IMG/VR virus record: IMGVR_UViG_2695420847_000002
Reading direction: 5' to 3' (one strand)
Source: a virus
Taxonomy: Duplodnaviria; Heunggongvirae; Uroviricota; Caudoviricetes
DNA length: 19,746 nt
This document shows, piece after piece, positions 1-19,570 of this stretch. The notes beneath the pieces are model-generated. The model was not told the origin of the DNA. It did no database searches and worked only from the letters and a program-made list of their open reading frames with translations. The number at the start of each line of letters is the position of its first letter. Within the stretch, counting starts at the first letter, position 1. The translations under genes and the position numbers were made by a program.

Positions 1-3000
1 ATGCCGTCCTGTTCCTGAGACAATACGGCACGACCACTGGCGGGCTTGCCCTTAATCGTCCAGCCACGCATATCAGGGATCACGCCTGACGGATAAGCGG
101 CTGCAAGTTTCGGGTAAGCAGATTTGTCAAAAGTCTGCCCCTGCATCAGGGCATAACCAGACGGAACGGTATCTGATGGCCACGGGATTGGTGCGCCGAC
201 TGGGTAGCTTTCTGGTGGAAGATTTTTCGAGGTATAAACTTCTGCCCAGTCTTCCTCAAAACCATAACCGTCTCTTGAAGAACGGTAGAACAGACCACCA
301 TTTCTGTAATGCGCCTTCATCTGCAGGGTCCGGCAACTTCCGACTCCGGTATAGAAGTTAACCAGAATATAGCTGTCGCCAGAGCGGGTGACATTGTAAG
401 CGCCTGATTCGGCATTCCAGGGAACGCCACCATCCGCATCGGCATATGTATCCGTTGCCCTTCTGGCAAAAGCAGCCACATGCGCAGCGGTTAAAGTAAT
501 ATCTCTGGAACCATCAAACTCAACACCAGAAACCAGTCTTGGCGTTTGCAGCTTTGTTGCTGTTAATGCATTACCGTTCAGACTTGCGGACAGTTTGGTT
601 CCAATAATCAGTTCGCCGGTTGCGTTATCAATAGCAACCGGTCTTAATGTATTCCAGCCACCATAAACATCACCTTGATTGGTAAGCAGCAGGTAAGTTT
701 TAGCGCCATCATTACGCCATAATGCACCATACTCCCCACCTATCATTCGAATCTGATTACCACCACGCGCTACAATTTCGTCTGTGGCAAAAAGTTTTTT
801 GCACGACAAGTTATCGTTAACGATTAACGAATGAGACTCATAAAAACCACGCCCACTCTTAAAATCAAGGATAACGTCCGCCGCGATACATTCAGTCGCT
901 GGATTTGTTGCCCCAAACTTATAGGTCGTATCATTAACAACGAGATCAGCACCAGGTGCGGATATTGACAGGCCATCTTCGATAAACGCAAAAACAGGGA
1001 AAGCAGCGCCATCAACATAGAACACAGAGCGCAAATCATCGCCCTTATTACTCATCATTATTGAGTGGATGGCTCGTTCATTGTTTTGATATTGCCAGAA
1101 CATTCCATAAGCATAACGCCCCCTGTCAGTCCAGCCACCAGGCATAACAAATCCGTTAAACTCGCAGTTATTCATCGGATCGCCTGCGGTTCGCGTTGCC
1201 GTGGTGATAATGACCCTTGATGCCAGTTCGCTTACTGAGCCAGCAGAACGCATAACAACAACAGGGTAATATTTTCCAGATGTTGCACCTGCAGGAGCGT
1301 TAACCCGCACATAACGCATACCACGCTTATCAGCAAAGTCTGTTTTACTGACCGCGTTAATGTTGTTCAGGAAGCGTCCCTTATCGGGTATATCAGCGCC
1401 GTTCTGGTCTTTCTGCAGACGTTTCTCTGCATTGTCATAGGCTGATTTTACTGCCTTTGGCGTTGCCGCCAGCGTTTCAGACGTGCTGTTGGTCGCGCTG
1501 CTTAGCTGGATTATCCCTTTCTGTGCTGTCGTTGCATCCTGTGCGGTGTATTTCCCGTTAGCCAGGTCATACGCGGCCTTAACGGCTTTTGGCGTTGCCG
1601 CCAGTGACTCGGAAGTGCTGTTGGTCGCACTGCTGAGCTGTACTATCCCCTTTTTCGTCGTGCTCGCATCCTCAAGCGCCACGGCGGATGCAATATCCTC
1701 TGCCCGTTTTGCCGCTGTCTCAGCGCGCGTTGCCGCGGATTCCGCCGTACTTTTGCTCTGAGCTGCCGCCGTCGCACTGCCAGCTGCCTCTGTCGCCTTC
1801 GTGGATGCCGTCGTGGCGCTGCCTTTCGCTGCTGATGCCTGTCTGCTCGCCTCATCTTTTGAAGCAGACGCAGATGATGCCGATGACGCCGCCGAACTGG
1901 CGGACGATGCAGCAGCCGTTTTTGAGGATTCTGCACGGGTTTCCGACGCTTTCGCGTTCGTTTCGGATGTCTTCGCTGCGGAAGCTGACCTCGCTGCTGC
2001 GCTGGCCTGCTCAGTGGCTTCGCCAGCCTTCGTTGTGGCTGTTGAAGCGGATGATGCGGCGCTTTCTGCCGATTTTCCGGCGGCGGTGGCACTGGCTGAG
2101 GCCTGCCCGGCACTTGTTGACGCGGCGCTGGCAGACGACGCAGCCGCTGTTTTTGAGCCTGCCGCAGCTGAGGCACTCTGTCCCGCTGCCGTTTCAGAAG
2201 ACCTGGCGTTCGTCTCGGACGTTTTGGCCGCCTTCGCAGAATTTGCTGTCGCCGTTGCCGAGGAAGCTGCGCTACTGGCGCTCGAGGATGCGTTCGTTTC
2301 TGATGATTTTGCCGCCTCTTTTGAAGCCGCCGCATCCCGGGCTGAGGTGGCAGCTTCTGACGCTTTCGTGGTCGCGGTGGATGCAGAAGTGGCTGCTGAT
2401 TGTTGTGACGCTGCAGCATTCGTTTCTGACGTTTTCGCGGCACTGGCACTGGTAGCTGCCGCGCTTTTTGAGGACTCTGCAGCAGCAGCACTTTTCGATG
2501 CTTCAGTGGCCTTTGTTGATGCCGTTCCTGCGCTGGAAGATGCTGACTGAGCCGACGACGCGGCCTGTCCGGCTGACGTGCTGGCTGCGCGTGCTGAGCC
2601 TGCAGCATCAGTCGCACGGGTTGCCGCCTCACTGGCAGATGTGCTGGCATCACTGGCTGACTTCTTTGCGGCTGCCGTGTTCTGTGCCACCACGGACGCG
2701 TTACGCGCCACCTCTTCCACCATCAGCTCAAAACGGCGCAGTGCCTCCGGACGGGCATCATCCTCCGTCATGGCACCGAGAAAATCATTCAGCGTACCGG
2801 GTCGGGAATCTTCATACACTGTGATGGTCCCGGCATGTGACGGCGGGAATCCTTCCACCAACAGAATAACGCTGTACTGACCGTACTCAACGTCCATACT
2901 GTAACGCCCGGCTTCATCCGGATTTTCTGAGGCCAGCGTGTTCACCACCACCGTGGTACTGTTACGTTTTGCTTTCAGCTGGATTGTGCAGTTCTGTACC

Positions 3001-3047
3001 GGTTTTCCTGTGCCGTCTTTCAGTACACCTGAAATCTTTACTGCCAT
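1..3047 (-). CDS. stf: Side tail fibre protein Stf, N-terminal ~1015 codons; 3' end lies beyond window position 1
   Basis: Seen: continuous minus-strand frame from ATG at 3047..3045 ([36 protein letters not shown]...) to the window edge, where the same frame reads ...[15 protein letters not shown]...[23 protein letters not shown]. Spot-checked at 2680-2717 ([13 protein letters not shown]) and 1260-1319 ([20 protein letters not shown]). Absent from the ORF track because no stop codon falls inside the window. Established (recall): N-terminus and the [29 protein letters not shown] block closely resemble lambda Stf / E. coli StfR. Confidence 0.85.
1435..1690 (-). repeat. Tandem direct repeat, about 2 x 132 bp, inside stf; encodes two copies of a phage tail-fibre repeat motif
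   Basis: Seen: the core tttggcgttgccgccag recurs at about 1456 and 1588 with flanking similarity. Encoded peptides are [29 protein letters not shown]... and [29 protein letters not shown]... Established: this motif class is the Pfam 'phage tail fibre repeat'. Boundaries approximate. Confidence 0.6.
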
Positions 3048-3058
3048 ATTCACCCCAC

Positions 3059-3084
3059 AAAAAAGCCCGCCTGAACCGGCGGGC
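3059..3084 (-). terminator. Rho-independent terminator downstream of lom, immediately upstream of the stf start
   Basis: Seen: 7-bp GC stem gcccgcc / ggcgggc (3065-3071 / 3078-3084) with a 6-nt loop, followed on the minus strand by T6 (A-run 3059-3064 on plus). Minus-strand RNA: GCCCGCCGGUUCAGGCGGGCUUUUUU. Confidence 0.6.
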
Positions 3085-3111
3085 TGTCATAACACTGTGT
3101 TACCTGGCTAA

Positions 3112-3711
3112 TCAGAATTTATAACCGACACCCACGATGAACCCGTCAGTGCGCCAGTCACCACTGCCGGAGCCTTCATAAGCGACATCAACGGCCACGG
3201 ATTCGGTCGGGTTAAACTGCACGCCAGCTCCCCACGCCAGAGACGTGTTGCTGTGGCGACCGTCATCACTTCCGGTCAGCACATCGTGCGTTTTCCCCTT
3301 GTTGTCAGTTACGCGGATATAATCCCCGGAGAAAGTCGACACACGGCTGTAAGCCATACCCGCCATCGCATACGCGCTGAACCATTCATTCACGCGCACA
3401 GACGGCCCCGCCATCACGCTGAACCAGCGATTACGCACGGAATCCTCATGCCAGCGGGTATCGCTGTAATGCGTTTTTTGCTCATCTTCAGCGTTGGCAT
3501 AACTGAATGACGTAATCAGCCCCAGCGTGTCCGTAAACTCATAACGGTATTTCACGTTAATCCCGTTCAGATTATCGCTGCCGGGAGCGTTCGTACGGGC
3601 ATGAAGATACCCTGCGCTCAGTGTGGCCTGCTGCTCAGACGCCCATGCAGGCGCACCGGATACGGCCAGACAGATGGCTGCGGACAAAATGGCTGCACAA
3701 ACTTTACGCAT
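3112..3711 (-). CDS. lom: Lom outer-membrane beta-barrel protein (Ail/Lom/PagC family), prophage moron
   Basis: Seen: 199-aa ORF with a signal-peptide-like N-terminus (MRKVCAAILSAAICLAVSGAPAWA) and C-terminal ...GVGYKF; ATG at 3711..3709 preceded by GAGAGG. Established (recall): same position as lambda lom between J and stf. Flanked by terminators on both sides. Confidence 0.9.
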   Translation of the reverse strand: MRKVCAAILSAAICLAVSGAPAWASEQQATLSAGYLHARTNAPGSDNLNGINVKYRYEFTDTLGLITSFSYANAEDEQKTHYSDTRWHEDSVRNRWFSVMAGPSVRVNEWFSAYAMAGMAYSRVSTFSGDYIRVTDNKGKTHDVLTGSDDGRHSNTSLAWGAGVQFNPTESVAVDVAYEGSGSGDWRTDGFIVGVGYKF

Positions 3712-3735
3712 AATTACCTCTCGCTTTTCTGCAAT

Positions 3736-3760
3736 AAAAAAGGCGCCATTTCTGGCGCCC
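3736..3760 (-). terminator. Rho-independent terminator downstream of J (tJ-like), upstream of lom
   Basis: Seen: stem ggcgcca / tggcgcc (3742-3748 / 3753-3759), loop tttc, then T6 on the minus strand (A-run 3736-3741 on plus). Confidence 0.6.
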
Positions 3761-3778
3761 GTATATGGGTTATAAAAT

Positions 3779-6700
3779 TCAGCTGATACTGATGCCTGCG
3801 GTGGCTTTCTTCATCACCACAACCAGCAAATCGCTGATACTTGCTGTGGGATACCAGTCATTTACCAGCCATGCTGACACCGAAAACTCCAGCGTCATGT
3901 GGCCGTGACCAGCAGGCATATCAATAACACCACTGTAAATCAGCGTATTATCCAGCGCGGTACGGTTATAAATTTCAGCACCATTTTTCTTCACTATCAG
4001 GCGGCATGAGGAGTAAATATCAGTATGCTCTCTCTCATGTTTAGCACCGCTGAATGCCACCGCCGGAATAACAATCTGCCGGTCAAACGGCTGATCGTCA
4101 TAAATCCTGACGGTAATGGTCCCTGATGGCCACCGCTCCGGTGCCCGGGAGTCCCGCGGGAAAGCCTTACCCACTGTTTTGACAATATCGCCTTCAATCT
4201 GGTTGGCTGACAGTTTCCCTTTAATCTGACAGTTCTCATTTATCGTAACGTTGTTGAGCGTCCCGGAGTTCGCATTCACACTGCCACTGATATCTGCATT
4301 TTTAGCGGTCAGCTTTCCGTCCGGTGTCAGGGAAAATGCAGGAGGATTACCGCCGCTGGTAATGGTGGGAGCCGTCAGATATTTCAGGAACACTTCATTC
4401 ATGAATATCTGATCACCCTGACCAACAAACATCGGTTTTGTGTTGCCATTTGCAGGATTAATCATCGCAATCCTGTCTGCCGCCAGCAGCACCTGACTCT
4501 GCATGCCGTCGGGGGTGTTCTCAATACCGGCACCGATACCCGCGATATAAAGGCGTCCGTCCTGCATCTGCTGCAGCTTCACAGCCCACATGCTGTTCAG
4601 ATTATTATTTGTATCAACCTGAACCTTCTGTATCTGCTGGATCGCTGCACTCTGGTCTTCCAGTTTCTTATTGACGGTCTGTGTGATTTCATTGCTGACA
4701 TCCGTAATGGACGTCCTGATTTCAGCCAGGTCAGGCGCAAGCTGACCGTTATCAATCTGCGTCCACAGCTCCTGAGCCAGATGGGTTTTCCCTATCTCGC
4801 CTTTGAAAAAATCCAGATAGCCGGATGCGTCATCACTCGGCTGACCAACAGCCTCCACGAATGCCGATTTGCCAACGGTGTTCACACTGCGAACGTAAAA
4901 ATAATAATTATGGCCCGGCCTGATATTGATACTGGCGGCTATCCAGTACAGCGCCGTGCCAAGATAGCGTGCTGTGGTTTCAACCTGCCTGATATCCGCA
5001 ATCCGCTTTTCCGAGAACCAGAACTCAAACTGTACCGTCGGATCATAAACCGCAAGATGCGGCGTGGCGGTTATCTGAAAATAGCCCGGCGTCAGCTCAA
5101 TCCGCGACGGCGCTGCCGGTGCGGCAATCCGGAACGATACCGACGCCGGATCGCCCTGCTGCCCCCACGCATTTACTGCCCGGACTGTCAGCCTGTAGTT
5201 CCCCAGAGCCAGTTGTGTGAAGCGGTAAGTGGTTTCCGTCGTCCGGGCCGTGCTGACCAGCCGCTCACTGCCGTCATCCGCTGCCACGGTCAGGCGAAGC
5301 ATGAAACTCACGCCCTTCACCACCTTCGGCGTGTCCCAGCGGGCCAGTACCTGATACTCCCCGCTGTCTGCGGTGACTTCGGCAGTCAGGTGCTGCACTG
5401 CTGGCGGCGTGACACCATTCACCGTGCCGCTCTGGTCGCCGTCAAAGTGCGCCCCGTTATCCACGATGGCTTCTTTTTCCGGTACATGCTGCACGGCGGT
5501 GATGGCATACGTGCCGTCGTCGTTCTCACGGATACTCACGCAGCGGAACAGGCGCTGGCGCAGCGTCGGCAGCTTCAGCCCCCATACGCTGTATCCGGCA
5601 ACGCCGTCAGGAACACGGCTCACTTTTACCTTCACGCCGTCGGTGACGGACTGGACCTCCACGCTGACCGGATTGCCACTTCCGTCAACCAGGCTTATCA
5701 GCGTGGTACCGGAGGATGGCAGCGTGATTTCACGGTCGAGCGTCAGCGTCCGGGTCTGGCTGTTCACCGCCAGCACGCGCCCGCCGGTGCTGATCCCCGC
5801 ATAGTCATCATCGCAGATTTCAATGACATCGCCCGGCACATGGCGAAGCCCTTCCGCACCCACGCTGAAGTCCACGGTCTGCGTTTCCAGTAGTTCCGTT
5901 TTAATCAGCCACAGCCCGGCGCGGTGCGCCTGCCCCCGGCTGGTACAGCCAAAGGCATCCATCTTCGTGACGTTACGACCGTAACGGAGAATGGCCTGCG
6001 TATCTTCAACAAGCTCTGTCGCCGTCTCCCAGCCGTTATCCGGGTCAATCCAGTTCACCTCAACGGCATTATGACGGTCCTTCAGGGCACTGAAGCTGTA
6101 GCGGAACGGCGCGCCATCATCCGGCATCACCACATTACTGCGGTTATAGGTCCACACCTTATCCGACGGTCGGTCCTGCACGAACGTCAGCGTCTGCCCG
6201 TTCCATACCGGCATACAGCGCATCGCCGAGCAGAAATCACTGAGAACATCCCACGCCTTGCGCTGTGTGGTCAGGTAGGCATTACAGGTGATGCGCGGCT
6301 CCGTGCCACCAAAGCCATCCGGCACCGACTGGTCGCAATTCTGGCCGATGACATACAGCGCCCATTTGTCCACATCCGCCGCACCGAGACGCTTCCCCAT
6401 GCCGTAGCGCGGATGGGTCAGCATATCCCACAGACACCAGGCCATGTTGTTGCTGTATGCTGGCTTAAACGTTCCGTCCCAGATACCGCTGTATTGCCGC
6501 GTCTGCGGGTTATAGTTCGACGGCACCTGCAGAATGCGCCCGCGAAGATGATAATTACGGCTCACCTGCTGGCTGCCGAACTGTTCCGAGTCCACCTGCA
6601 CGCCGACCAGTGCCGTGTTCGGGTAGCACTGTTTCACATCGATGATTTCGGTGTATGACGACCAGAGCGTTTTGTTCTGCAGCTGGTCTGTGGTGCTGTC

Positions 6701-7258
6701 CGGCGTCATTCTGCGCATCCGGATATTAAACGGGCGCGGCGGCAGGTTATCCACCACCACCGAGGCCAGATACTGCGAGGTGGTTTTGCCCTTAATGGTG
6801 ATGTCTTTTTCCGTCACCCAGCCACCATTACGCTGTATCTGAACCAGCAGGCGAACTTCCGACGGATTCCGGTCCCCCTTTGAGGTGGTTTCCACCAGTG
6901 CCTGCACACCGAAGGTAAAGCGCAGTCGGTCGATGTTTGCCGACGTGATGGCGCGGGTGATCGGCGTGTCGTATTTCACTTCCGTACCCAACACCGTCTC
7001 GGAGCCGGAGGATTCAAATCCCTCCGGCGGAGTCTGCTCCTGCTCACCAGCCCGGAACACCACCGTGACACCGGCGATGTTGGTATTCCCATCACTGTCC
7101 AGCACCGGCGTACTGTTCAGCAGCACGCTTTTTAATCCATCCATCGGACCTTCAATCGGCCCTTCACTGATGGCATCAATCACACTCAGCAACTGCGTGG
7201 ACTTCAGGTTGTCCTTCGCTTCGCGCGGGGTATGCCCCTTACTGCTTCCTTTACCCAT
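3779..7258 (-). CDS. J: Tail tip central fibre / host specificity protein J
   Basis: Seen: 1159-aa ORF, ATG at 7258..7256. Established (recall): N-terminal ~780 aa are near-identical to lambda gpJ ([38 protein letters not shown]...); the C-terminal part is homologous but diverged. Confidence 0.95.
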
Positions 7259-7280
7259 TCCTCACGCTCCATAAACGACA

Positions 7281-7300
7281 AAACCGCCCGCAGGCGGTTT
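7281..7300 (-). terminator. Stem-loop in the I-J intergenic gap (terminator-like, weak U-tract)
   Basis: Seen: 8-bp stem aaaccgcc / ggcggttt with 4-nt loop; on the minus strand followed by UUUUGUCGUUU, then the J ribosome-binding site GGAG. Function inferred only. Confidence 0.3.
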
Positions 7301-7318
7301 CACATAAAACATTTTGCA

Positions 7319-7960
7319 TCAGCGACCAATCACCACAACCTGACCACCATCCCCTTCGTCTGCCGTGCTGATCTCCTGAGAAACCACGCGTGACCCCACG
7401 CGCATTTCACCGTACAGAACAGGCAGAACATTGCCCTGGGCAACCATGTTATCCAGTGAAGAAAAATAGGTGTTCTGTTTGCCGTTATCCGTTGTCTGTG
7501 TGCGGGGGGTTTTGGGTTTAGGGGCCAGCATCTGTGCAACACCGCCAAGCGTCATACTGGCACCGAGAGAAAACAGCAGATTACTCGCCATAATTCCTAC
7601 CCCCGGCATCCATATAGCAACCGCCATAACAGCCGCCCCCAGCACAGCCTGAAACACACCGCCACTTTTGGCTCCCGCCAGACGCGGCACGATATGGATC
7701 ACAGCACCATTTGCCAGCGGTTCATTAAGACGGGCTGATAATTCCGTTTCACCTGTATCACGCCCGGCAATGCGTACCTGATACCAGCCGTCGCTCAGCT
7801 TCTGACGAAACGCCGGGATCTGCATGGCCAGCGCCCGGATGGCTTCGGCCCCCGTTTTCACACGCAGATCGATGCGGCGGCCAAATCGTTGTAAATCCCC
7901 GTAAAGGCAGATGCGCGCCATGCCCGGTGACGCCAGAGGGAGTGTGTGCGTCGCTGCCAT
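7319..7960 (-). CDS. I: Tail tip assembly protein I
   Basis: Seen: 213-aa ORF, ATG at 7960..7958, overlapping the 3' end of K by ~100 nt. Established (recall): the same K/I overlap exists in lambda; N-terminus MAATHTLPLASPGMARICLYGDLQRFGRRIDLRVKTGAEAIRALA matches lambda gpI. Confidence 0.9.
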   Translation of the reverse strand: MAATHTLPLASPGMARICLYGDLQRFGRRIDLRVKTGAEAIRALAMQIPAFRQKLSDGWYQVRIAGRDTGETELSARLNEPLANGAVIHIVPRLAGAKSGGVFQAVLGAAVMAVAIWMPGVGIMASNLLFSLGASMTLGGVAQMLAPKPKTPRTQTTDNGKQNTYFSSLDNMVAQGNVLPVLYGEMRVGSRVVSQEISTADEGDGGQVVVIGR

Positions 7961-8601
7961 TTGTCGGTATACCTCTCTCGTTTGCTCAGTTGTTCAGGAA
8001 TATGGTGCAGCAGCTCGCCGTCACCACAGTAAATGGCGGCATGATTCGGCACCGATGAACCAAAGCAGCACAGCAGCACATCGCCCGGTTGTGCTGATGA
8101 CAACGGCACCTGATACAGCCCTGTGGCCTCCAGATTATCCAGATAGAGATTCTGACCGTGACGCCACCAGTCATCCCCGCGATGAAAATCCGGCATCTCA
8201 ATTCCCGCCAGATGGTAAGCGTCCCGGAACAGCGTGTAACAGTCCGTCACCCCGTGCTCAAAGCGCCGCCCGGTGAGATGCGGCACACAGCGGAATTTAT
8301 GAATCGCCCCCCGGCAGACCAGCCACCACGGCAAATCACTCTGCACCTGCAGCCGCCGGTCGGCCTCACTCAGCCAGGGCAGACCACCGGGGTGGCTGTG
8401 GACCAGCGCCACAATCTCTCCCTGCATTTCTGCACTCAGCCAGTCCTCCGGCGACATCCGGAAATACTCCTCCGGCTCACCGGATATATTCACGCAGGGA
8501 AAATATCTTTCCCCCTCCGGTGTTCTCACCACGAAGCCGCACGACTCCGCTGGCGCACATCGCCGGGCGTGCGCCAGAATCGCTGATTCTGTCTCTGTCA
8601 T
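7858..8601 (-). CDS. K: Tail tip assembly protein K (MPN/JAMM-like plus NlpC/P60-like domains)
   Basis: Seen: the ORF is open from 8610 (GTG) with the first ATG at 8601..8599, 6 nt after the L stop. It contains HSHPGGLPWLSEAD (HxHx7SxxD) and a downstream Cys/His NlpC/P60-like segment (VTDCYTLF...NHAAIY). Start codon uncertain (8610 GTG, 8601 ATG, or an internal Met). Confidence 0.85.
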   Translation of the reverse strand: MTETESAILAHARRCAPAESCGFVVRTPEGERYFPCVNISGEPEEYFRMSPEDWLSAEMQGEIVALVHSHPGGLPWLSEADRRLQVQSDLPWWLVCRGAIHKFRCVPHLTGRRFEHGVTDCYTLFRDAYHLAGIEMPDFHRGDDWWRHGQNLYLDNLEATGLYQVPLSSAQPGDVLLCCFGSSVPNHAAIYCGDGELLHHIPEQLSKRERYTDKWQRRTHSLWRHRAWRASAFTGIYNDLAAASICV

Positions 8602-8606
8602 GGGAT

Positions 8607-9305
8607 TCACTGCGAAAGTTTGTTAATGGAAAGGAAGCCGCCAAAGTTGCCGACGTTATTGCGAAACTTACAGCCGCTCAGGCATTTGCTGCATTTATCC
8701 TTCGTGATATCGGACGTCGGCTGATCATATTCATCCGCGACCGCCGGACCGTGATAACCGCACTCATCACCGCGATAGGTCCAGGTGCAGGTGTTGGCCA
8801 GCATGATACGTCCCGGAAAAACGGCACCGTCCGTTTCCGTCGGCGTGGACAGTACAAAAGAGGCACTCACCGCGCTCAGTTCACTGCACTGCTCGATGCG
8901 CCAGCGGCTGATCACCTCCTGCTCCGGATCGGCGTCACTGTTTCCGTTGACGAAGTTCACCGCATCCAGAAAACGGGCGTAAACCTTACGCCTGACCACC
9001 GTTCCGCCGACCAGACTCTGCAGGTCTTCCGCCATCCCGGTGACCATGCCGTGCAGGTTAGAGACCGTCAGTGTCGGACGGGCAGCACTGCCCTTACCGT
9101 TCAGTTCAAATCCCGTCCCCTGAATGGGGTATGCCTGATACTGCCGCCCCTGCCAGGTGACCGGCTCACCTTTTTCGTTCTGCTCATTACAGAAAAAATA
9201 ACGTTCACCACCGACCTCTGTCAGATCGATTTCCCAGAGCACCACCTGGGCTGACTGAGTAAGGCGTGTCGTCTCATGATGTGTTTCCTGTGGAATATCC
9301 TGCAT
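8607..9305 (-). CDS. L: Tail tip protein L (C-terminal Cys cluster)
   Basis: Seen: 232-aa ORF, ATG at 9305..9303, ends ...KCSKCLSGCKFRNNVGNFGGFLSINKLSQ. Established (recall): near-identical to lambda gpL, same length. Confidence 0.95.
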   Translation of the reverse strand: MQDIPQETHHETTRLTQSAQVVLWEIDLTEVGGERYFFCNEQNEKGEPVTWQGRQYQAYPIQGTGFELNGKGSAARPTLTVSNLHGMVTGMAEDLQSLVGGTVVRRKVYARFLDAVNFVNGNSDADPEQEVISRWRIEQCSELSAVSASFVLSTPTETDGAVFPGRIMLANTCTWTYRGDECGYHGPAVADEYDQPTSDITKDKCSKCLSGCKFRNNVGNFGGFLSINKLSQ

Positions 9306-9314
9306 CAGGGCCTC

Positions 9315-9644
9315 CTATGCCACGACCTGTTCAAAATCTGCCGTTATGGTTACCCACAGCGCCCCCACGCTTGCCGACCATTTACGACAAACCACCCTGA
9401 TCGGCTTCCAGTCATAAGGTGGCGTCCACTGAAATGCGCGGACGCCACCGTGCCGTTCCAGAAAGGCTTTCAAAGATGGGTGTTCACATTTACGAACACG
9501 TATCGTCACGCTGTAAGTCGACAACTGGTTATTCAGTCCCGCCGCACGACGCTGTTCATAACCATCGCCCAGCTTCACTGTCACCACTTTCGGCTCTGAT
9601 ACCACATTCATATCCGGGCGCACTTTCCAGTGAAACGTCTCCAT
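9315..9644 (-). CDS. M: Tail tip protein M
   Basis: Seen: 109-aa ORF (METFHWKVRPDMNVVSEPK...); its ATG overlaps the H stop as TAATG. Established (recall): same length and sequence as lambda gpM. Confidence 0.95.
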   Translation of the reverse strand: METFHWKVRPDMNVVSEPKVVTVKLGDGYEQRRAAGLNNQLSTYSVTIRVRKCEHPSLKAFLERHGGVRAFQWTPPYDWKPIRVVCRKWSASVGALWVTITADFEQVVA

Positions 9645-12600
9645 TACCGATATGCTCCACTTAACCGACCACCATCACGGGCCTGCTGTTGCATAAAGTC
9701 CGCTGCCGCTTTTTTCCCAAGGTCATAAACCACCTTCAGGGCAGCCGGACCTATCTGCCCGTTCGTGCCATCGTTATTGATCTCGATGTTGTACTGCGGG
9801 GCAAACATCGCCATACCTGAACCACCAATATCCGCCACAACCCCCAGCTTACCATCAGCACCACGACGCAGTGGCAGAATGGCTTCAGGTCCAGCTTCCC
9901 CCATCACACCCGCGCCTTTTGCAAAAGCAAAAAACGTCGGACGGTTAACCACCGTGCCACTGTAGCGACTCAAATCAGCCGACTGATAAACACCGCCATC
10001 AGCATTGGCTACAAAATCAAAAGGCAGCGCGGAAGCAATACCTTTTACCGCTTTCATTAAAGCTATCTGAGCCATGATTCTGGACATATCTGACAGCACA
10101 GAAGAGGTGAAGGATTTGAAATTGAGTTTGCCTGTAGTACAGAATGTCGCCAGCCAGTCACTCATGCTACTGAACGCAGACGTGAACAACTGTTCCACTG
10201 TCCCGGCTGTGTTATCCGCTTTCTCAGTGACATTCTGGAGTGCACGCAGGACTCCGTTTTTCCAGTCACCCTGAGCAATTTCAAGCTGTTGCCAATAACG
10301 GCGATTCTCATTCAGTTGTCGGTTCAGGCTCTCCGTCAGCGCCTGCTCGGCCTTTCTGTAGTCATCCGTGTTATATGTTCCTTTCTGCTCACTATCCCGC
10401 CTCAACTGCTCCAGCTGTTGCTGGTATTTCTGGCGAAGACTCAGTTGTACCTGATATCGCTGCCGCTGCTGATCACCCATACCCACCGTGGCGATATCCA
10501 GGTCATGTTGCTGGCGCTGAGCGCGCTCTTCTTCAGCCAGTTGACTGGTCAGCTGAATTGTTTTTTTCTTCAGATCGTTGAGTGCCGTCTGTTTCTGAAG
10601 CTCCTGCTGTTTTACATCCAGCAGCGTCAGTGCCTGAATCAGTTCATCTTTACGGGCCAGCACACTCTTTTCATCTGCCGTCAGTTTTTTCCCGTCCAGA
10701 TCGCTGATGCGCTGCTGCAGAGCCAGAAGCTGTTTATGCGCTTCTGTCATCCTGTCAGTGGCAATGCCTGCTGACTGTCTTGCAGCAGCAATCTGTCCTT
10801 CCACCTGTGCCTGTTGCTGACTGTACTGCAGCAATAACCGGGTGGCCTCATCATTACGGGTTTCGCGTGTTTTTTTCTTACCGGATGCCAGGACTTTCTC
10901 GTAACGTTCATTTTCACGTTGTATCGCCGCATCCCTGACAGCCTGATCGGCGTACTGCATGGCATTAATACGCGCAATTTCACGCTGATGTCGTGCTGCT
11001 TCCGTTTCATTCATCCGGTTCAGTGCAGCATTTTCAGCATTACGGCGTTTCTGTTGCTCCTGATAATTCCGCTCTGCCTGCTCTTTTGCATCCTGCAAAT
11101 CCTTCTGGCGTTTTTTCTCCTGAAGCTCGTTAAGACGCTGCTGATCGTACTCAACCTGAGAAGATGATGCCGTCCAAGGGAGTCTTTTCGCCCGCGACAC
11201 TTTCTCCTGTAAAGCGGAAATCTGTTCATCCAGCGAGTCTTCACGACCAATATTCATGGCCGCATCCCAGAAACGACTCCATAAATCAGACAGATACTTC
11301 AGCGTACTGCCCAGCGCATTGAGGTTATTATCAATATCCGCAGTACGCCGACCGGTTTCCTCTGCCAGTGCAGACATGGCTATCCGTGCCGCATCACTGG
11401 ACCGCCCCTGTTCCCCAAGGACGCGTATCTGCTCAAGCTGAGTGGCAGTAAGAAAATGCAGCTCATTGTCCAGAGCCTTCGCGGCATTTACAGGATCATC
11501 CTTCAGCCGCTTAAACTGATTTATGGTATCGCTGACCGACTGGCCAACCGATCGCTCCATCTGTGCGGCAGCTCTCGCCACCATACCGATATCGTTTCCA
11601 CGAAATGCACCACTCCCCACCACCTGAGCCAGCGCACCGGCTGCAGCATGTTGCGTGATACCATTCCCGGAAATAGCACGACTGAGCGTCCACAGCTGCC
11701 CGGCAGTGACTCCGGCATAATGCCCCGTCAGCGACAGCTGGCGGTTAAATTCTTCCCCCTCCTTCTGACCGTCATACCAGGCTTTACCCAGACCATAGAC
11801 AGCCGCGGCAATACCGCCAATAACCCCGCCAAGCATCATGCCTTTCGGTGACATCAATGTGTCTATCCATCCGGCACGGTTAGCCAGCGTTATTCCGGAT
11901 CCCCTCAGCGCACCTAAATTGCCGCGGGCCAGTTCACCTATCAGAACGCCTATCTCCTGACGGGCCGCTGCACTTTTCAGACCCAGCGAATGCGTTGCTT
12001 TTCCTGCCTGCTCCATTTTGCGGATATACACTTCTGCAGCACTGCTTACCCCCAGCTGGGCAGCCTTAGCACGAAGCAACTCAGAAGAAGAAAGATTCTG
12101 GCGGGTTGCCTGCTCTTTAAGCTGACGGATAAACGCCACTTTCTGTCGGGTAGCCTCTTCCTCAGCCTGTGTAAGAACACGGGTTTTCGCCGTAACCTCA
12201 GAAATCAGCGCCAGATAATCCTGCTGACCAATCCCGCCACTGTTTCTGGCCTGTCGGATCTGCTGCTGAATACGCTGTAATTCCTGCAGCCCCGCACTGG
12301 CCTGTTTCACACTGTCAATCTGACGATAAAACGCGGCAGCCGCTTTATCCTGAGCCTCCGCCAGAGCCATGGCCTGCGCCTGTTCCTCGCGCATTTTCTG
12401 GCTCAGTGCCTCCATACGCTGGCGGGTTTGCTCCACCTCGCGGGCCATGCGTTCATGAGCCTGTGCGCTCTTCTCCACCGTCTGCGCATGGACGGATGCG
12501 GCTGTTGCAGCCGAAGAAGCCGCCTGCATTGTCTGCCGGGCGGCCTGAGTCTGACGCTCCATAAAACGCTGCATACGGGCAGAAGACCGTTCTGCATCGC

Positions 12601-12700
12601 TGGCTGCACCATTCAGAAGGTTTTTGATACGGGGAATTTCATTTTTAAACTCTGCCGCATCAATCCCCAAATCAATGACCAGGTTGGCTATCTGGTCCAT
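9644..12700 (-). CDS. H: Tail tape measure protein H
   Basis: Seen: ORF is open to a TTG at 12730, but the ATG at 12700..12698 is preceded by GGAGGTG at good spacing, giving 1018 aa. Long central coiled-coil (Gln/Ala/Arg/Glu-rich). C-terminus NNDGTNGQIGPAALKVVYDLGKK...DGGRLSGAYR matches the lambda gpH C-terminus from recall. Position between T and M. Confidence 0.9.
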   Translation of the reverse strand: MDQIANLVIDLGIDAAEFKNEIPRIKNLLNGAASDAERSSARMQRFMERQTQAARQTMQAASSAATAASVHAQTVEKSAQAHERMAREVEQTRQRMEALSQKMREEQAQAMALAEAQDKAAAAFYRQIDSVKQASAGLQELQRIQQQIRQARNSGGIGQQDYLALISEVTAKTRVLTQAEEEATRQKVAFIRQLKEQATRQNLSSSELLRAKAAQLGVSSAAEVYIRKMEQAGKATHSLGLKSAAARQEIGVLIGELARGNLGALRGSGITLANRAGWIDTLMSPKGMMLGGVIGGIAAAVYGLGKAWYDGQKEGEEFNRQLSLTGHYAGVTAGQLWTLSRAISGNGITQHAAAGALAQVVGSGAFRGNDIGMVARAAAQMERSVGQSVSDTINQFKRLKDDPVNAAKALDNELHFLTATQLEQIRVLGEQGRSSDAARIAMSALAEETGRRTADIDNNLNALGSTLKYLSDLWSRFWDAAMNIGREDSLDEQISALQEKVSRAKRLPWTASSSQVEYDQQRLNELQEKKRQKDLQDAKEQAERNYQEQQKRRNAENAALNRMNETEAARHQREIARINAMQYADQAVRDAAIQRENERYEKVLASGKKKTRETRNDEATRLLLQYSQQQAQVEGQIAAARQSAGIATDRMTEAHKQLLALQQRISDLDGKKLTADEKSVLARKDELIQALTLLDVKQQELQKQTALNDLKKKTIQLTSQLAEEERAQRQQHDLDIATVGMGDQQRQRYQVQLSLRQKYQQQLEQLRRDSEQKGTYNTDDYRKAEQALTESLNRQLNENRRYWQQLEIAQGDWKNGVLRALQNVTEKADNTAGTVEQLFTSAFSSMSDWLATFCTTGKLNFKSFTSSVLSDMSRIMAQIALMKAVKGIASALPFDFVANADGGVYQSADLSRYSGTVVNRPTFFAFAKGAGVMGEAGPEAILPLRRGADGKLGVVADIGGSGMAMFAPQYNIEINNDGTNGQIGPAALKVVYDLGKKAAADFMQQQARDGGRLSGAYR

Positions 12701-13022
12701 AACGCACACCTCCGGAAATACCTTCCCCAAGATGCATCAGTTCTTCGTCCGTTCGCTCCGGTATCCCGTTCTCTTCCGGTAAAAGGCTGAAATCAGCCAC
12801 CGCAGCATCACTGCTACCGGACACCATTCTCACGATCAATGCCTTCAGCGAGGCAAACTGCGCATCCATCCACACATCACTGAAGCTCTGCATCCGGAAA
12901 TAATCGCCCCATTCACCAAGCTCAGTGGCCGACATTTCCGACAGCATCCGCCGCCAGTCTGCCCGCCGGAACTCCCGGGCAAGCCGCATGACAAACTGCA
13001 TTTCCCGCGTCAGGACTTTTCC
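12672..13022 (-). CDS. T: gpT segment of the G-T tail assembly chaperone, read in the -1 frame relative to G (programmed frameshift)
   Basis: Seen: the -1 frame is open from a stop at 13037..13035 through to 12672 and overlaps the last codons of G. It has no plausible independent ribosome-binding site. Established: the G/G-T arrangement is conserved upstream of tape measure genes in long-tailed phages. The frameshift is inferred, not demonstrated. Confidence 0.7.
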   Translation of the reverse strand, partial: GKVLTREMQFVMRLAREFRRADWRRMLSEMSATELGEWGDYFRMQSFSDVWMDAQFASLKALIVRMVSGSSDAAVADFSLLPEENGIPERTDEELMHLGEGISGGVRYGPDSQPGH

Positions 13023-13399
13023 GGCGTCAGCACCTCATGCTCCAAATCCCCGGCATTCTCAATGGCTCCCATACCGCTCAGCGACAGAACCATCTCCGCC
13101 CCCGCTCCCAGGGCATCATACGACCATGTTGTAATAACGGATGCGCAAAGCGTCTCAACATCCTGAGACTGTTCCGCATTCCACAGTGAGCGGGAAACCA
13201 GCCAGGCATTGATATCCATCCCCATCCGCAGAAAAGCAATCTGTCGTTCAGCCTCCGGCAGTTCTCCCTCCCCGGCATCAAACTTTGCCGTTCGCTGCTG
13301 AACAAACGCCAGATATTCAATTCTCTGCAGCCCGGACAGCTCACTGAGCACCACGGACTGCTTTTCATAATTAAACGTGCCCTGTTTCAGAAACATCAT
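13010..13399 (-). CDS. G: Tail assembly chaperone G
   Basis: Seen: ATG ATG at 13399..13394 preceded by AGGTGGAG; the longer ORF in the track (13438) would start inside the upstream terminator hairpin. The motif ...VVLSELSGLQRIEYLAFV... resembles lambda gpG (recall). Stop TGA at 13012..13010. Confidence 0.85.
   Translation of the reverse strand: MMFLKQGTFNYEKQSVVLSELSGLQRIEYLAFVQQRTAKFDAGEGELPEAERQIAFLRMGMDINAWLVSRSLWNAEQSQDVETLCASVITTWSYDALGAGAEMVLSLSGMGAIENAGDLEHEVLTPEKS
13016..13022 (-). other. Candidate -1 frameshift slip site GGAAAAG at the end of G
   Basis: Seen: minus-strand ...CCG GAA AAG TCC TGA in the G frame; the heptamer G GAA AAG lies inside the 22-nt window where both G and T frames are open. 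Established (recall): the lambda site is G GGA AAG. Assignment by inference only. Confidence 0.35.
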
Positions 13400-13412
13400 G
13401 TTCTCCACCTGC

Positions 13413-13436
13413 AAAAAAGCCCCGGATAACCGGGGC
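13413..13436 (-). terminator. Rho-independent terminator between V and G
   Basis: Seen: stem gccccgg / ccggggc (13419-13425 / 13430-13436), loop ataa, followed on the minus strand by T6 (A-run 13413-13418 on plus), then the G ribosome-binding site. Confidence 0.55.
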
Positions 13437-13456
13437 AAATGATGAGTATCGTCCTG

Positions 13457-14200
13457 TTAACCTGCGGCGCTGACAGCCACCGCAGCCACTGCCACAAAAT
13501 CGCCGTCAGAAGTCATGCCCACAATGCTGACACTGCCCTGCTTCACGCCTTTCACCGTGGCCACAAGCCCGTTCAGGGTCACCGTGGCAGTCTGTGGATC
13601 TGTCGAATGCACACTGATCGCTTTGTCACTGGCTCCGTCAGGTTTTACTGTAAAGGTCAGCGTGGTGGTTGCTCCCACTTTTACACTGGCAGATGCCGGT
13701 GCCACCGTCAGCCCGGTAACGCTCACTGTTTCAGTGCCTTCCTCTGCCAGATACGGACGCCCCACACCGCTGATTTTCACTGTGCGGGTCATCACGTCTT
13801 TTGAGGCAATGGTTTTACCCAGTGAGCTCAGCCAGCCACGGAAAACATCAACAGTGCCGTTGGGATATTTGATACGAAACGCGCAGACTTCACCGGAGTC
13901 GAACAACTGAACCAGTTTTTTCTGCCCGCTGTCACCCGGACGCCAGGCCAGCGTCGCCGAAGTATCACCGACGGATTTCTGCCCCTGGGTTGTCGTTTTC
14001 CAGTCTGCATCTTCATCATCGAGATAAGTGTCATCTTCTGCATCAGCGGTCATTTCGCCAGGTTGCAGATCCTTCACCATCGCAAGACGCAGCCAGTCAG
14101 TGTCCGATAAAGGGTTCGCAAACGCATCGCCCTTGCCGGTGTACATCCAGAACGTCGTTCCCGCACCTTTCGTTTTTGCCAGTGGATTTGGTGTGGTCAT
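13457..14200 (-). CDS. V: Major tail protein V with a C-terminal Ig-like domain
   Basis: Seen: ATG at 14200..14198 preceded by AAGGAGGTG (the track ORF starts at an upstream GTG, 14206). ...KTKGAGTTFWMYTGKGDAFANPLSDTDW...YLDDEDADW...YPNGTVDVFRGW... closely resembles lambda gpV (recall). Confidence 0.95.
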   Translation of the reverse strand: MTTPNPLAKTKGAGTTFWMYTGKGDAFANPLSDTDWLRLAMVKDLQPGEMTADAEDDTYLDDEDADWKTTTQGQKSVGDTSATLAWRPGDSGQKKLVQLFDSGEVCAFRIKYPNGTVDVFRGWLSSLGKTIASKDVMTRTVKISGVGRPYLAEEGTETVSVTGLTVAPASASVKVGATTTLTFTVKPDGASDKAISVHSTDPQTATVTLNGLVATVKGVKQGSVSIVGMTSDGDFVAVAAVAVSAAG

Positions 14201-14211
14201 TGCCACCTCCT

Positions 14212-14613
14212 TTAATTCGTGTACGTGATCTGGTACGTGATTTCCGCCATCGCCCAGGTGGCCATCTCATTATCACGTTGATAGTTAAAACCGAGAGGGA
14301 TCAGGGTGTCGATGAGTCCGGAAAGTGCCGGTATATCATTCAGAGCCGGGAAAATGGTGCTCTCCATCCACATATCCAGCTCTGAATCCGGTGCCTGTGC
14401 CCGGATGAAGACAGCAATATGCAGAACAGCCTGCCAGTCATCTTCATCCGTCATTTTTCCGGTGTACTGAGCATCACTCAGCCACACCGCCACGGCATGC
14501 AGTTCCTGCGCATCAATAAATGCCGGAAGCCCGTCAAAAAACGTGGCGCTGTCTCCACACTGTTCCCGAAGGCGTGCCAGTACGGCCTGGCGGATTTGTG
14601 TATGTCGGTTCAT
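14212..14613 (-). CDS. U: Tail terminator protein U
   Basis: Seen: ATG at 14613..14611 overlaps the Z stop as ATGA; an alternative upstream ATG is at 14625. ...ATFFDGLPAFIDAQELHAVAVWL...WMESTIFPALNDIPALSGLI...ITYQITYTN resembles lambda gpU (recall). Confidence 0.85.
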   Translation of the reverse strand: MNRHTQIRQAVLARLREQCGDSATFFDGLPAFIDAQELHAVAVWLSDAQYTGKMTDEDDWQAVLHIAVFIRAQAPDSELDMWMESTIFPALNDIPALSGLIDTLIPLGFNYQRDNEMATWAMAEITYQITYTN

Positions 14614-15188
14614 CGGGTCAGCCATAACCTCAGTTGTTGTTTCAGTGCATACCCCAGCTGTTTCGGCATTTCCGCAGCAATAATGCGGTCGCGGGCATCT
14701 TCAAATGCCTGTGTCAGCGGTCCGGACAGCGGGACTTTCACCACATCAATGGGGTAACGATTTTTGCCATCAATACGCCGCATCACATGCCAGCGACCAT
14801 TCGCCAGTTGCTGAATAAACGCATCCCGGAAAAGATATTTACCCACCTTCAGCACACTGCCACGGTACTGCAGTTTTCCACCACGCCGGGCCAGTCTGAC
14901 CCGGGCTGTCCCCAGCTTAATAGCGGGCAGATTGCCCCGGTTAACGCGGATCCTGGCCGTCATTTTTCCTGACGGACTGGCTTTAAACACCCGGACACGC
15001 TGACGTACCAGTTTCAGGGGGATCCCTCTCACCTGGTTATCTCCCGCAACGGTATTCCCGGCAACCTGCCGGGTGGCGACCGAGACCGCTTTCTGTGCCA
15101 CACGATTTATCGCCCATGCGCTGGCCTGTGGCACCATACGGGTATCAAGGCTGTTCAGATTACGGATGGCATTCTCAAGCCCCTTCAT
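14610..15188 (-). CDS. Z: Tail completion protein Z
   Basis: Seen: 192-aa ORF, ATG at 15188..15186 preceded by AGAGGTG. Assigned by synteny (between FII-like and U) and by length equal to lambda gpZ (recall). Confidence 0.8.
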   Translation of the reverse strand: MKGLENAIRNLNSLDTRMVPQASAWAINRVAQKAVSVATRQVAGNTVAGDNQVRGIPLKLVRQRVRVFKASPSGKMTARIRVNRGNLPAIKLGTARVRLARRGGKLQYRGSVLKVGKYLFRDAFIQQLANGRWHVMRRIDGKNRYPIDVVKVPLSGPLTQAFEDARDRIIAAEMPKQLGYALKQQLRLWLTR

Positions 15189-15199
15189 CCCACACCTCT

Positions 15200-15475
15200 T
15201 TACTCAATAAAGATCATTGGCTTACCGTTAAAACGTTCATGCCGTGTGACCGTCCATTGTTGTCCGTCATAAACAACGCGATCCCCGCGCCGTGGGCGGT
15301 ATCCCGAAGAAAACACCACCAGAGAGACCGCAGGTCCGGACAGAGCATTCAGCTCTGCCAGTGTTTCTCCCGGGATCACAGTCATATCGGCATCATTAAT
15401 CGAGGCTGTCTTTCCCATCTTTCTGACCGTGATCGCATCCATACGCGCTGCCAGCCTGGAAAAGGGATCAGACAT
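15200..15475 (-). CDS. Head-tail connector protein at the lambda FII position (FII-like)
   Basis: Seen: 91-aa ORF; its ATG at 15475..15473 overlaps the stop of the upstream gene by 8 nt (ATGTCTGA), so it is probably translationally coupled. Assigned mainly by synteny; sequence similarity to lambda FII not verified. Confidence 0.6.
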   Translation of the reverse strand: MSDPFSRLAARMDAITVRKMGKTASINDADMTVIPGETLAELNALSGPAVSLVVFSSGYRPRRGDRVVYDGQQWTVTRHERFNGKPMIFIE

Positions 15476-15791
15476 TGAGTTTTACCGGCACTTCTTCTGC
15501 ACTGGTTCCGGCATCTGCCCAGACAACCCCGACCAGCGGATCAGAGCCGCTGTTAGTCAGCTGAACTTTTCCGGACTTCAGATAAACCTTCTTACCCGTT
15601 TTCATATCATCCGTTTTCAGCTTAGGCAGCATAAACACACCTTCGGTCATGCCGTCGCCTGTTTCACCCTGTGGAATATCGGTCAGCGCCACCGCAAAAA
15701 TATTACCCACCTGCACCAGATCTCCGCTGCTGATGGCTGCACTGGCAACAATCGCCACCGTTTTTCCTTCTTCTACAAAATTCTTTGCCAT
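15468..15791 (-). CDS. Small DUF2190-like protein of unknown function at the position of lambda FI (possible capsid accessory/decoration protein)
   Basis: Seen: ATG at 15791..15789 preceded by CGGAGA; the track ORF starts at an upstream TTG (15836) inside the terminator. MAKNFVEEGKTVAIVASAAISSGDLVQVGNIFAVALTDIPQGETGDGMTEGVFMLPKLK... fits my recollection of the DUF2190 family found next to HK97-type capsid genes. Not verified by search. Confidence 0.5.
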   Translation of the reverse strand: MAKNFVEEGKTVAIVASAAISSGDLVQVGNIFAVALTDIPQGETGDGMTEGVFMLPKLKTDDMKTGKKVYLKSGKVQLTNSGSDPLVGVVWADAGTSAEEVPVKLNV

Positions 15792-15834
15792 AACTGTCTC
15801 CGCACAGCCCCGTTCAGGGGCTGATTTCAGGTAC

Positions 15835-15853
15835 AAAAAAAGCCCTTACGGGC
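15835..15853 (-). terminator. Weak rho-independent terminator just downstream of the capsid gene
   Basis: Seen: 4-bp GC stem gccc / gggc (loop ttac) followed on the minus strand by T7 (A-run 15835-15841 on plus). A second 6-bp hairpin (agcccc / ggggct, 15806-15822) lies between it and the next ribosome-binding site. Short stem, so low confidence. Confidence 0.4.
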
Positions 15854-15877
15854 CATCAGAGTTGTTGTCTGCGACGT

Positions 15878-17836: not shown

Positions 17837-17849
17837 CCTGAACCAGGAA

Positions 17850-19358
17850 TTATTCTTCGGACTGGTCGTCGGTGTGCTGCGGCTCCTGTCGTTTCGTTGC
17901 GGCACTGCTGCCTCCTTTATCACTGGCCGGATCGGTATCAAATACCAGATCCAGCTTGCGGTTTTCATCAATTTCGGCCTTGCGCCGACGTTTGACATCA
18001 TCCGGATTACGACCACCTGCACGTACCCAGTCTGATTCTGTCGCTGCTCCACCACGAATCTGAATTTTCCAGGCCTCAGCCTCCTTAACAGGGTCAATCC
18101 ACGGCATCACCGGTCCGGAGTACACCGCGGTATACAGTGAAGAACGGTCAAGATCGCGGGGTAGCCTGATAACACTGGATGCCACAGCCTGTTTCAGCCA
18201 GGCACGATACATCGGGCGGGTGACAGCACCAATAAACCAGTCCTGCAGGATCAGGTAGCCATCAGTGGATTCAACCAGCTCCTGACGCTGGGCGCTGTAA
18301 GTGCCGTTATAGTTGCGCGCTGTACTGGAAAAACTCAGACGACTGCCCGCCGCCACGGCACGCAACTGACCATTACGAAAAGTTTCAAGGTTAGGATTGG
18401 GGCGATCCGACTTCACCATTCCGATTTCTTCGCCGGGTTTCAGATCGTCGTAAATAATGCCTGGCTGAATGGTAAGCTCGCGTTCCTTATCCTTGCTGCC
18501 ATTACCATCCGGTTCATAGCTCTGCCCGTCGCCTTTGCGGATGTACATCCCCAGAGCAGCGGCGATCCTTGCTGCAGTCAGCTCATAATCTTCATAATCT
18601 TTCAGGGCACTGAGGCGGATCAGCACACCGGACAACAAAGACGTCCCGCGCATCTGGTGCAGACGGCGAACAAATTTAAGATGCAGCATTCGCTCTGCAT
18701 CCACTTCTTTGGTTTCCATCTGCCGTCCGGATACGGGACGGCTTTTATACACCAGATATTTTTCGGGACGCCCCCAGTCATCAACAAACACGCCCTGATT
18801 CAGCCTGTTGCTCTCATCACTGGTCATGGGAATAAAGTCTGGCTCGAGCGCCTCCAGCCAGAAATGAACACCGGCAGAAGGCGTCAGGCTGTTTATGCGC
18901 CCGGAAACCATCTGGGCAAACACCTCACCATCGCGCAGCCAGGTACGCAGCATCAGACGTTCCAGCATCGGACGGGTAAACTGCCCGGTGACTTCCGGGC
19001 TGACAGACCATTCACTCCATCGGGTGCGAATCTCCGCTGCCAGATCACGGGCAATGGCCCCATTGCGTAATACCGGATGTGGCTCGACAATAATCCCGTT
19101 TTTCCCCACCACCCGTTCTTCCAGCTTGTCAAATACACCAATAACCAGATCGTGGTTGTTATCAAGGTAACGGGCCTGCTCACGTAACGACACGGCCCCG
19201 TACTGGCTTAGCTGGTCGGCAGTTCGGTTCTCCCGTCGGGCTTTGTGTGTCCGCGTCGTTTTTACGGCTTCATAAGCCTGGATCACCGCACGGGAACGCA
19301 GCCTTGCCGCTTTCCATCCAGGTGAAAAAACGCCAATCACATCATCAAGAATTGCCAT
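17850..19358 (-). CDS. B: Portal protein, lambda gpB family
   Basis: Seen: ATG at 19358..19356 preceded by GAGG and overlapping the W stop as ATGA; the track extension to GTG 19430 is rejected. C-terminus ...RKLDLVFDTDPASDKG...EPQHTDDQSEE resembles the lambda gpB C-terminus (recall). Confidence 0.9.
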   Translation of the reverse strand: MAILDDVIGVFSPGWKAARLRSRAVIQAYEAVKTTRTHKARRENRTADQLSQYGAVSLREQARYLDNNHDLVIGVFDKLEERVVGKNGIIVEPHPVLRNGAIARDLAAEIRTRWSEWSVSPEVTGQFTRPMLERLMLRTWLRDGEVFAQMVSGRINSLTPSAGVHFWLEALEPDFIPMTSDESNRLNQGVFVDDWGRPEKYLVYKSRPVSGRQMETKEVDAERMLHLKFVRRLHQMRGTSLLSGVLIRLSALKDYEDYELTAARIAAALGMYIRKGDGQSYEPDGNGSKDKERELTIQPGIIYDDLKPGEEIGMVKSDRPNPNLETFRNGQLRAVAAGSRLSFSSTARNYNGTYSAQRQELVESTDGYLILQDWFIGAVTRPMYRAWLKQAVASSVIRLPRDLDRSSLYTAVYSGPVMPWIDPVKEAEAWKIQIRGGAATESDWVRAGGRNPDDVKRRRKAEIDENRKLDLVFDTDPASDKGGSSAATKRQEPQHTDDQSEE

Positions 19359-19570
19359 CAGAACCTCGCCAGCCGGTACCCAGGATGCCCCCGTCGTCGT
19401 GTAATCAGAGCCGCAAGGCGGCGCTCCCACTCCTGCCGTCCCTGCCGGATCTCAGATAAGTTTTCCATGGTCATCTGCTGACCATTAAAGGTGACGGATT
19501 TTCCGTCCAGCACCGCCATTTCAGCTTCCATATAACGCTGAATCATGGCTTCGATATCATTCTGGTTCAT
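19358..19570 (-). CDS. W: Head completion / head-tail joining protein W-like
   Basis: Seen: ~70-aa ORF ending ...ITRRRGHPGYRLARF, similar to the lambda gpW C-terminus (recall). GGAGG abuts the first ATG (19576), so the second ATG (19570) is the more likely start. Confidence 0.8.
   Translation of the reverse strand: MNQNDIEAMIQRYMEAEMAVLDGKSVTFNGQQMTMENLSEIRQGRQEWERRLAALITRRRGHPGYRLARF

Follow-up and report, generated by a model that had tools for sequence, protein, structure and literature searches.

StfR has been present in the annotation of the Escherichia coli K-12 genome for decades, and mosaicism of tail fibres is a textbook case. The subject here is the side tail fibre gene, stf, at one edge of a 19,746-nucleotide (nt) stretch of tailed-phage DNA (IMG/VR record IMGVR_UViG_2695420847_000002; the whole stretch is called the window), and in particular a distal segment of its product that differs from the side tail fibre of phage lambda. 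In Ur-lambda, the N-terminal domain of Stf forms a collar on the tail where gpV meets gpM, residues 394-525 (the part replaced in the window) form a hinge and a distal coiled coil according to an electron cryomicroscopy (cryo-EM) and AlphaFold3 model, and the gp37-like tip binds OmpC (PMC12617516). For the T4 fibre protein gp34, the crystal structure assigns residues 1014-1047 and 1105-1128 to a triple beta-helix, with the P4 beta-prism between them (PMC5537660). That fibre genes are shuffled in modules between lambda, T4, Mu, P1 and P2 is a classic finding (Haggard-Ljungquist 1992; Sandmeier 1992, 1994; cited in PMC3945230), and in laboratory crosses lambda takes up Rac stf sequence via homologous recombination (PMC3945230).

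By homology, window positions 3-3047 were assigned to a standard fibre of the StfR type, of which they encode residues 1-1015; this is the type found in the Rac prophage of K-12, here apparently carried by a lambdoid (mEp460-like) prophage. This architecture is already known, occurs in about one quarter of complete E. coli genomes and is ordinary.

Identity of the side tail fibre gene

Reverse-complement translation gave an open reading frame (ORF) on the minus strand, starting at the ATG at 3047 and open to window position 3, with 1015 codons and 0 stops.

3..3047, minus strand: stf, side tail fibre gene of the StfR type, truncated at the window edge after residue 1015 of ~1176 (open frame, relatives)

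Stf residues 1-1015 were aligned with residues 1-971 of K-12 StfR (MAFFT, blastn) and were colinear throughout, the single large difference being an extra Phage_fiber_2 repeat of 44 amino acids (aa) in the window protein. By megablast, window positions 230-1330 were 98.9% identical in DNA to stfR of K-12 (MG1655, BW25113). Across the gene, K-12 stfR and the window stf shared 95% DNA identity in the proximal 1535 nt and 98.05% in the distal 1540 nt. The preliminary description had considered the segment to be of unknown affinity and had named colinear alignment with canonical Stf or StfR proteins as what would speak against this; such an alignment with K-12 StfR was found over the full length of the segment.

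The best full-length relative was WP_071886289.1 (1176 aa, strain CFSAN061769), with 99.7% aa identity over the first 1015 residues. The CFSAN061769 locus was 99.6% identical and carried a tail fibre assembly (tfa) gene directly after stf, as does K-12, where the order in the Rac prophage is stfR, tfaR, pinR. In CFSAN061769, the closest complete genome (L001 1919-5517), the fibre-bearing prophage adjoins a truncated ydfJ and the chaperone gene is named tfaQ; its position presumably corresponds to Qin rather than to Rac of K-12. Among 5426 complete E. coli genomes searched by megablast, the insert (window 230-1330) was at least 80% covered in 1361 and the whole 3.1-kb query in 1231. StfR-type fibre architecture was also found at ~95% identity in the lambdoid phages Kati, 2H10, mEp332 and PhiR34_1.

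The possibility that the stretch represents a frame error, a pseudogene or an assembly chimera was also weighed. Broken copies do exist: in E. coli entries P0113, P0027, P0040 and P0109, the N-termini of terminase, gpI or ClpP are fused in frame to the middle and C-terminal parts of StfR. Against this reading, the frame was open for 3045 nt, and many complete genomes, as well as plaque-forming phages, have intact genes of 1120-1176 aa with a downstream tfa. The open frame and the colinear intact homologues rule such an error out for practical purposes, and it was given almost no credence. The peptides quoted in the preliminary description were located where it had placed them (MRYVRVNAP at residue 577, window 1319; WAEVYT at 934, window 248; GAPIPWPSD at 951, window 197; SQEQDG at the edge), and its frame assignment was sound, with no stop across the 1015 codons; it had omitted that the gene lies on the minus strand. 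Several StfR fragments in the database are misnamed 'short-chain fatty acid transporter'. The fused and misnamed entries probably represent cryptic prophages reduced by deletion, or else errors of assembly or annotation.

Comparison with lambda Stf

Ur-lambda Stf (774 aa) was rebuilt from orf-401 and orf-314 of J02459. In blastn against J02459, the first 962 nt of the window stf were 87% identical, matches from there as far as residue 534 were weaker, and the part between residue 951 and the window edge was 85% identical. The gene was thereby confirmed to begin like lambda stf and to meet the edge in the GAPIPWPSD block. Between residues 535 and 950 (window 198-1446, 417 codons) no blastn match to J02459 was obtained, and neither DNA nor protein similarity to the hinge and distal coiled coil of lambda Stf proper was found at these residues.

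198..1446, minus strand: segment without DNA similarity to lambda stf, residues ~535-950 (blastn against J02459); the 'insert' of the preliminary description

The lambda counterpart of the 417 unmatched codons comprises 147 codons, and the segment is therefore a replacement relative to lambda rather than a pure insertion, with a length of ~410 aa. The earlier claim of an inserted domain of ~350 aa was right in that the segment is unlike lambda, and was corrected as to both its length and the insertion itself. Breakpoints relative to lambda Stf were placed in the Phage_fiber_2 repeat (between ...ATPKAVK and SAYDNAE) and at the collar (between ...YPV and GAPIPWPSD), which bears out a mosaic at a host-range locus.

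Modules of the fibre

The window protein was divided into the following modules.

2646..3047, minus strand: N-terminal anchor domain, residues 1-134 (Pfam phage_tail_N, E 1.4e-71)
1683..2645, minus strand: proximal shaft of Ala/Ser-rich coiled coil, residues ~135-455 (aligned with lambda and K-12; coiled coil from the lambda homologue, PMC12617516)
1410..1664, minus strand: two Phage_fiber_2 repeats, left recombination junction (Pfam PF03406, two stretches, E 2.4e-37)
1329..1442, minus strand: linker, residues 536-573, homologous to residues 143-172 of the Mu tail fibre S (phmmer against PDB 5yvq and 8ju3)
804..1328, minus strand: domain A, residues 574-748, all-beta globular 'knob' of ~165 aa with motifs PMNNCxFxG, GGWSDR, ERAIHSI and FYVEARAFP
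582..803, minus strand: domain B, residues 749-822, like T4 gp34 residues 1036-1105 (BLASTP 43% identity, E 8e-15)
492..581, minus strand: fibre repeat, one GNAxTATKLQTxRxxxGVxFDGSxDIxL unit, residues 823-852 (invariant GN..TATKLQ...GV.FDGS..I columns across alleles)
213..491, minus strand: domain D, residues 853-945, like S' of Mu(-) (phmmer against 8ju3 residues 318-415, stretch E 2.6e-21)
3..212, minus strand: start of the gp37-type collar, residues 946-1015, right recombination junction (84% identity to T4 gp37 residues 811-879)

At the left junction of the cassette, a 132-bp (44-aa) duplication of Phage_fiber_2 was seen at 1520-1651 (minus strand). It was visible in alignments only and was not reported by Tandem Repeats Finder.

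Domain B matched Pfam PF21446 (Gp34_trimer) with 94.4 bits against a cut-off of 27 (E 8e-27 in the whole protein, 3.5e-23 alone), and its PDB matches were 4uxe, 5nxf, 5nxh, 9x3r and residues 268-336 of Mu S (5yvq). Since residues 1036-1105 of crystallised gp34 span the end of the helix and P4, domain B would correspond to the end of the gp34 triple beta-helix plus the P4 beta-prism. Domain D scored 28.7 bits against Pfam PF12604 (gp37_C; cut-off 22.5). The collar was further identified by PDB 2xgf (E 1.7e-32), by Pfam Collar and by 88% identity to lambda Stf residues 529-597; the needle and tip of the fibre lie beyond the window. NCBIfam contained no family for the Stf protein. Most of the segment thus matched known fibre families (Pfam Gp34_trimer and gp37_C) or known fibres (T4 gp34, Mu S and S').

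Domain A

Domain A alone had no Pfam match even at E<=10 and no NCBIfam match. Its annotated PHROG matches were all tail fiber or tail collar fiber proteins, and the remainder, including the top match, were families without an assigned function. The homologue search returned mostly near-identical E. coli fragments, and the diversity of the domain was accordingly drawn from a library of clusters at 50% identity: 132 clusters (E<=0.001) were found among 1.84 billion cluster representatives, and they include fibres of both siphophages and myophages. The match covered ~160-170 residues in nearly all full-length matches and was always interior, in proteins of ~350-2700 residues. In seven diverse members, Pfam identified N-terminal anchors of the lambda type (phage_tail_N) or the P2 type (Phage_tail_fib), and tips of the Collar, Peptidase_S74 or Phage_tail_C_2 families.

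An AlphaFold2 model from a 35-sequence alignment was all-beta and globular, with a mean predicted local distance difference test (pLDDT) score of 92.3 and a predicted template modelling (pTM) score of 0.89, and domain A is predicted to be a compact beta-sandwich knob. Foldseek of the model against the PDB gave nothing below E 0.046 and template modelling (TM) scores of at most 0.36. BFVD models of tail fibres from JenK1, pAh6-C, phi 3, phiAS4 (annotated gp37) and navn showed the same fold.

Two other relationships were tried and rejected. Profile matches to PDB sequences (E 0.0075-1) were to antibody heavy-chain variable (VH) domains only and were judged spurious; they stem from the pattern GGWSD..G.F....ER.......A.YV.AR, which was taken for a coincidence. 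A divergent gp34 P3 domain was rejected at an hhalign probability of 0.8% against full-length T4 gp34.

The preliminary description had suggested that the segment might be an extra binding or enzymatic module. One form of this is that domain A serves as an accessory, lectin-like glycan-binding knob, giving a second low-affinity contact to lipopolysaccharide (LPS) or O-antigen beside the gp37-type tip. The compact beta-sandwich predicted with high confidence would suit such a role, as would the nearly invariant polar residues N626, D641 and E657 and the circulation of several divergent domain A alleles (~60-70% identity) in E. coli fibres. On the other side stand the lack of any match to a Pfam, carbohydrate-binding module (CBM) or lectin family even at E<=10, the Foldseek result against the PDB, and the internal position of the domain, which was never at a fibre tip. 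The conserved positions (mostly Pro, Gly and aromatic residues, plus polar T616, N626, D641 and E657) are furthermore largely of a structural kind. On balance a glycan-binding knob was considered rather unlikely. The broader proposal, in which domain A founds an undescribed, widespread family of beta-sandwich knobs and, through a second site that binds glycans, modulates host range without involvement of the tip, was considered unlikely.

A tailspike-like enzymatic activity of the segment on surface polysaccharide (depolymerase, esterase or deacetylase) was assessed with the same searches. No hydrolase, lyase or esterase family was found in Pfam, NCBIfam or PHROGs, and all annotated PHROG matches were 'tail fiber' or 'tail protein', the others being of unknown function. 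No right-handed beta-helix was predicted, the sole helix-like element being the thin triple beta-helix of the gp34 type, and the parts of tailspikes that matched were ~100 residues of proteins of 580-680 residues. Because there was neither a family match nor a beta-helix, enzymatic activity is very unlikely. For the segment as a whole, no sequence-family or clear fold match to a lectin, a CBM or a polysaccharide hydrolase was found, and the suggested extra module gained no positive evidence.

Exchange of modules between fibres

Alignment of divergent E. coli alleles showed that the modules vary separately. Alleles P0115 and P0117 are without domain B, and in them domain A is joined straight to tandem fibre repeats of the GNAxTATKLQ type; P0071 and P0075 have an unrelated domain D; P0084, P0087 and others combine a divergent domain A (~60-70% identity by eye) with an unchanged domain D and collar. 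The same was seen across phage families. The fibre of the P2-like myophage P2_2H4 has the repeats, the linker and domain A at 67% identity over a 286-residue stretch, followed after domain A by the fibre repeat and domain D (50%), with domain B absent and a different tip. The full-length fibre of Nonagvirus 9g was 54% identical and is annotated as similar to the lambdoid Rac prophage. Sub-modules are exchanged independently of one another, both from allele to allele and from one phage family to another. The junctions coincided with short conserved motifs, namely the Phage_fiber_2 repeat, the GNAxTATKLQ repeat and GAPIPWPSD.

The left junction was also considered as a possible invertase (Gin/Pin) crossover site, since the region of Mu S homologous to the linker holds the gix site; this was rejected. 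The 26-bp Gin/Cin/Pin crossover consensus, TTnTCnnAAACCnnGGTTTnnGAnAA, had 0 matches with up to three mismatches in the whole window. The DNA under the homologous FLNNINAV motif fitted this consensus at 12 of 26 positions by eye.

Proposed role of the segment

The segment is likely an ordinary distal-shaft cassette of the StfR fibre type, made of spacer and knob modules that present the gp37-type tip. The cassette would occupy the place of the lambda hinge and distal coiled coil, and would consist of a trimer-forming series: the Mu S-like linker, the domain A knob, the gp34 P4-like prism with its triple beta-helix, the fibre repeat, and the Mu S'/gp37_C-like domain D. It would end in the T4 gp37-type collar, needle and tip, the tip being the putative receptor-binding part, whose folding would depend on the downstream Tfa chaperone. 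In this arrangement the length and geometry of the distal half-fibre would be determined by the cassette, which would also present the tip. The cassette probably arose, and is probably reshuffled, through homologous recombination at the short conserved junction motifs.

Several observations weigh against this assignment. Domain A (~165 aa, 40% of the insert) is without a solved relative or an assigned function, and its conserved polar residues T616, N626, D641 and E657 could form a binding site. E. coli also has discrete domain A alleles (~60-70% identity), as could be expected if the domain were selected for host range. The AlphaFold2 monomer model of the insert (416 aa, 13 near relatives) had a pLDDT of 39 and was unusable, and the assembled, trimeric architecture is modelled by analogy with homologues. 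The tip of this fibre allele, the proposed receptor-binding part, lies beyond the window. We infer the trimeric state of the cassette, together with its purely structural role.

Gene context and prophage backbone

Upstream of stf, on the same strand, lie lom, J, I, K, L, M and the tape measure gene (H), identified by Pfam, together with genes for the tail tube, a fused ClpP and capsid protein, and the portal. The two genes nearest to stf were placed as follows.

3112-3711, minus strand: lom (Pfam)
3779-7258, minus strand: J (Pfam)

The order of late structural genes (lom, J, I, K, L, M ... portal) identifies the window therefore as the late structural block of a lambdoid prophage, and stf lies after J and lom within the lambdoid tail gene block, as is typical of the StfR type. 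The backbone of the window (2209-19643) was 96-97% identical to phages mEp460, cdtI and Ayreon, whose megablast similarity to the window ended inside stf, at ~2209 or ~2698. One and the same mEp460-like head-tail module thus bears differing fibre cassettes.

The ORF at 15878-18097 (minus strand) combines a ClpP-type protease and a phage capsid domain (Pfam CLP_protease and Phage_capsid_4). Its true start is probably further downstream than the listed TTG, because the listed start overlaps the portal ORF by ~250 nt. Terminator-like GC-rich hairpins with T runs flank lom at 3064-3085 and 3741-3760 (minus strand), that is, between lom and the stf start codon and between J and lom; two were observed against 1.0 expected in shuffles, a count that by itself is not significant.

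Significance and comparison with known systems

As a discovery the locus carries little weight, since StfR and the modular shuffling of fibre genes were already known. In practice it supplies a map, down to the residue, of the modules in a fibre type that is very common in E. coli; the natural junctions on this map could help in the engineering of chimeric fibres, as done in PMC11338833. The residual gap is the conserved ~165-aa domain A, for which there is no Pfam family, solved structure or assigned role.

T4 shares two modules with the window protein, domain B (43% identical to gp34 1036-1105) and the collar (84% identical to gp37 811-879); these two alone are shared, and T4 has them on different proteins, gp34 and gp37, of its jointed fibre. 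Mu S (G+) and S' (G-) (PDB 5yvq, 8ju3) share the linker motif, the gp34-like domain (S 268-336) and domain D (S' 318-415). They differ, as do the P2-like gpH variants (P2_2H4), in their N-terminal baseplate anchors and short tips, and the Gin/Pin crossover site of the Mu system was not found in the window.

Ur-lambda Stf resembles the window protein at its N-terminal anchor and in the proximal coiled coil, where the first 962 nt are 87% identical in DNA, and again in the gp37-like collar (lambda Stf residues 529-597, 88% aa identity); its gene likewise lies after J and lom. The lambda protein differs in that its residues ~400-527 (hinge and distal coiled coil) are swapped in the window for ~410 unrelated residues. 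It has one Phage_fiber_2 repeat, as has K-12 StfR, where the window Stf has two, and its Ala/Ser-rich coiled-coil shaft is ~89 aa shorter. This extra coiled-coil length (window ~1860-2126, minus strand; Stf residues ~308-396) is also present in K-12 StfR and had gone unmentioned in the preliminary description.

StfR of the K-12 Rac prophage (WP_000279097.1, 1120 aa) has the same domain order from the N-terminal anchor to the collar, with one Phage_fiber_2 repeat fewer than the window protein. Beyond the window, the closest full-length relative of the window protein (1176 aa) and K-12 StfR differ in the variable His-rich needle and the tip.

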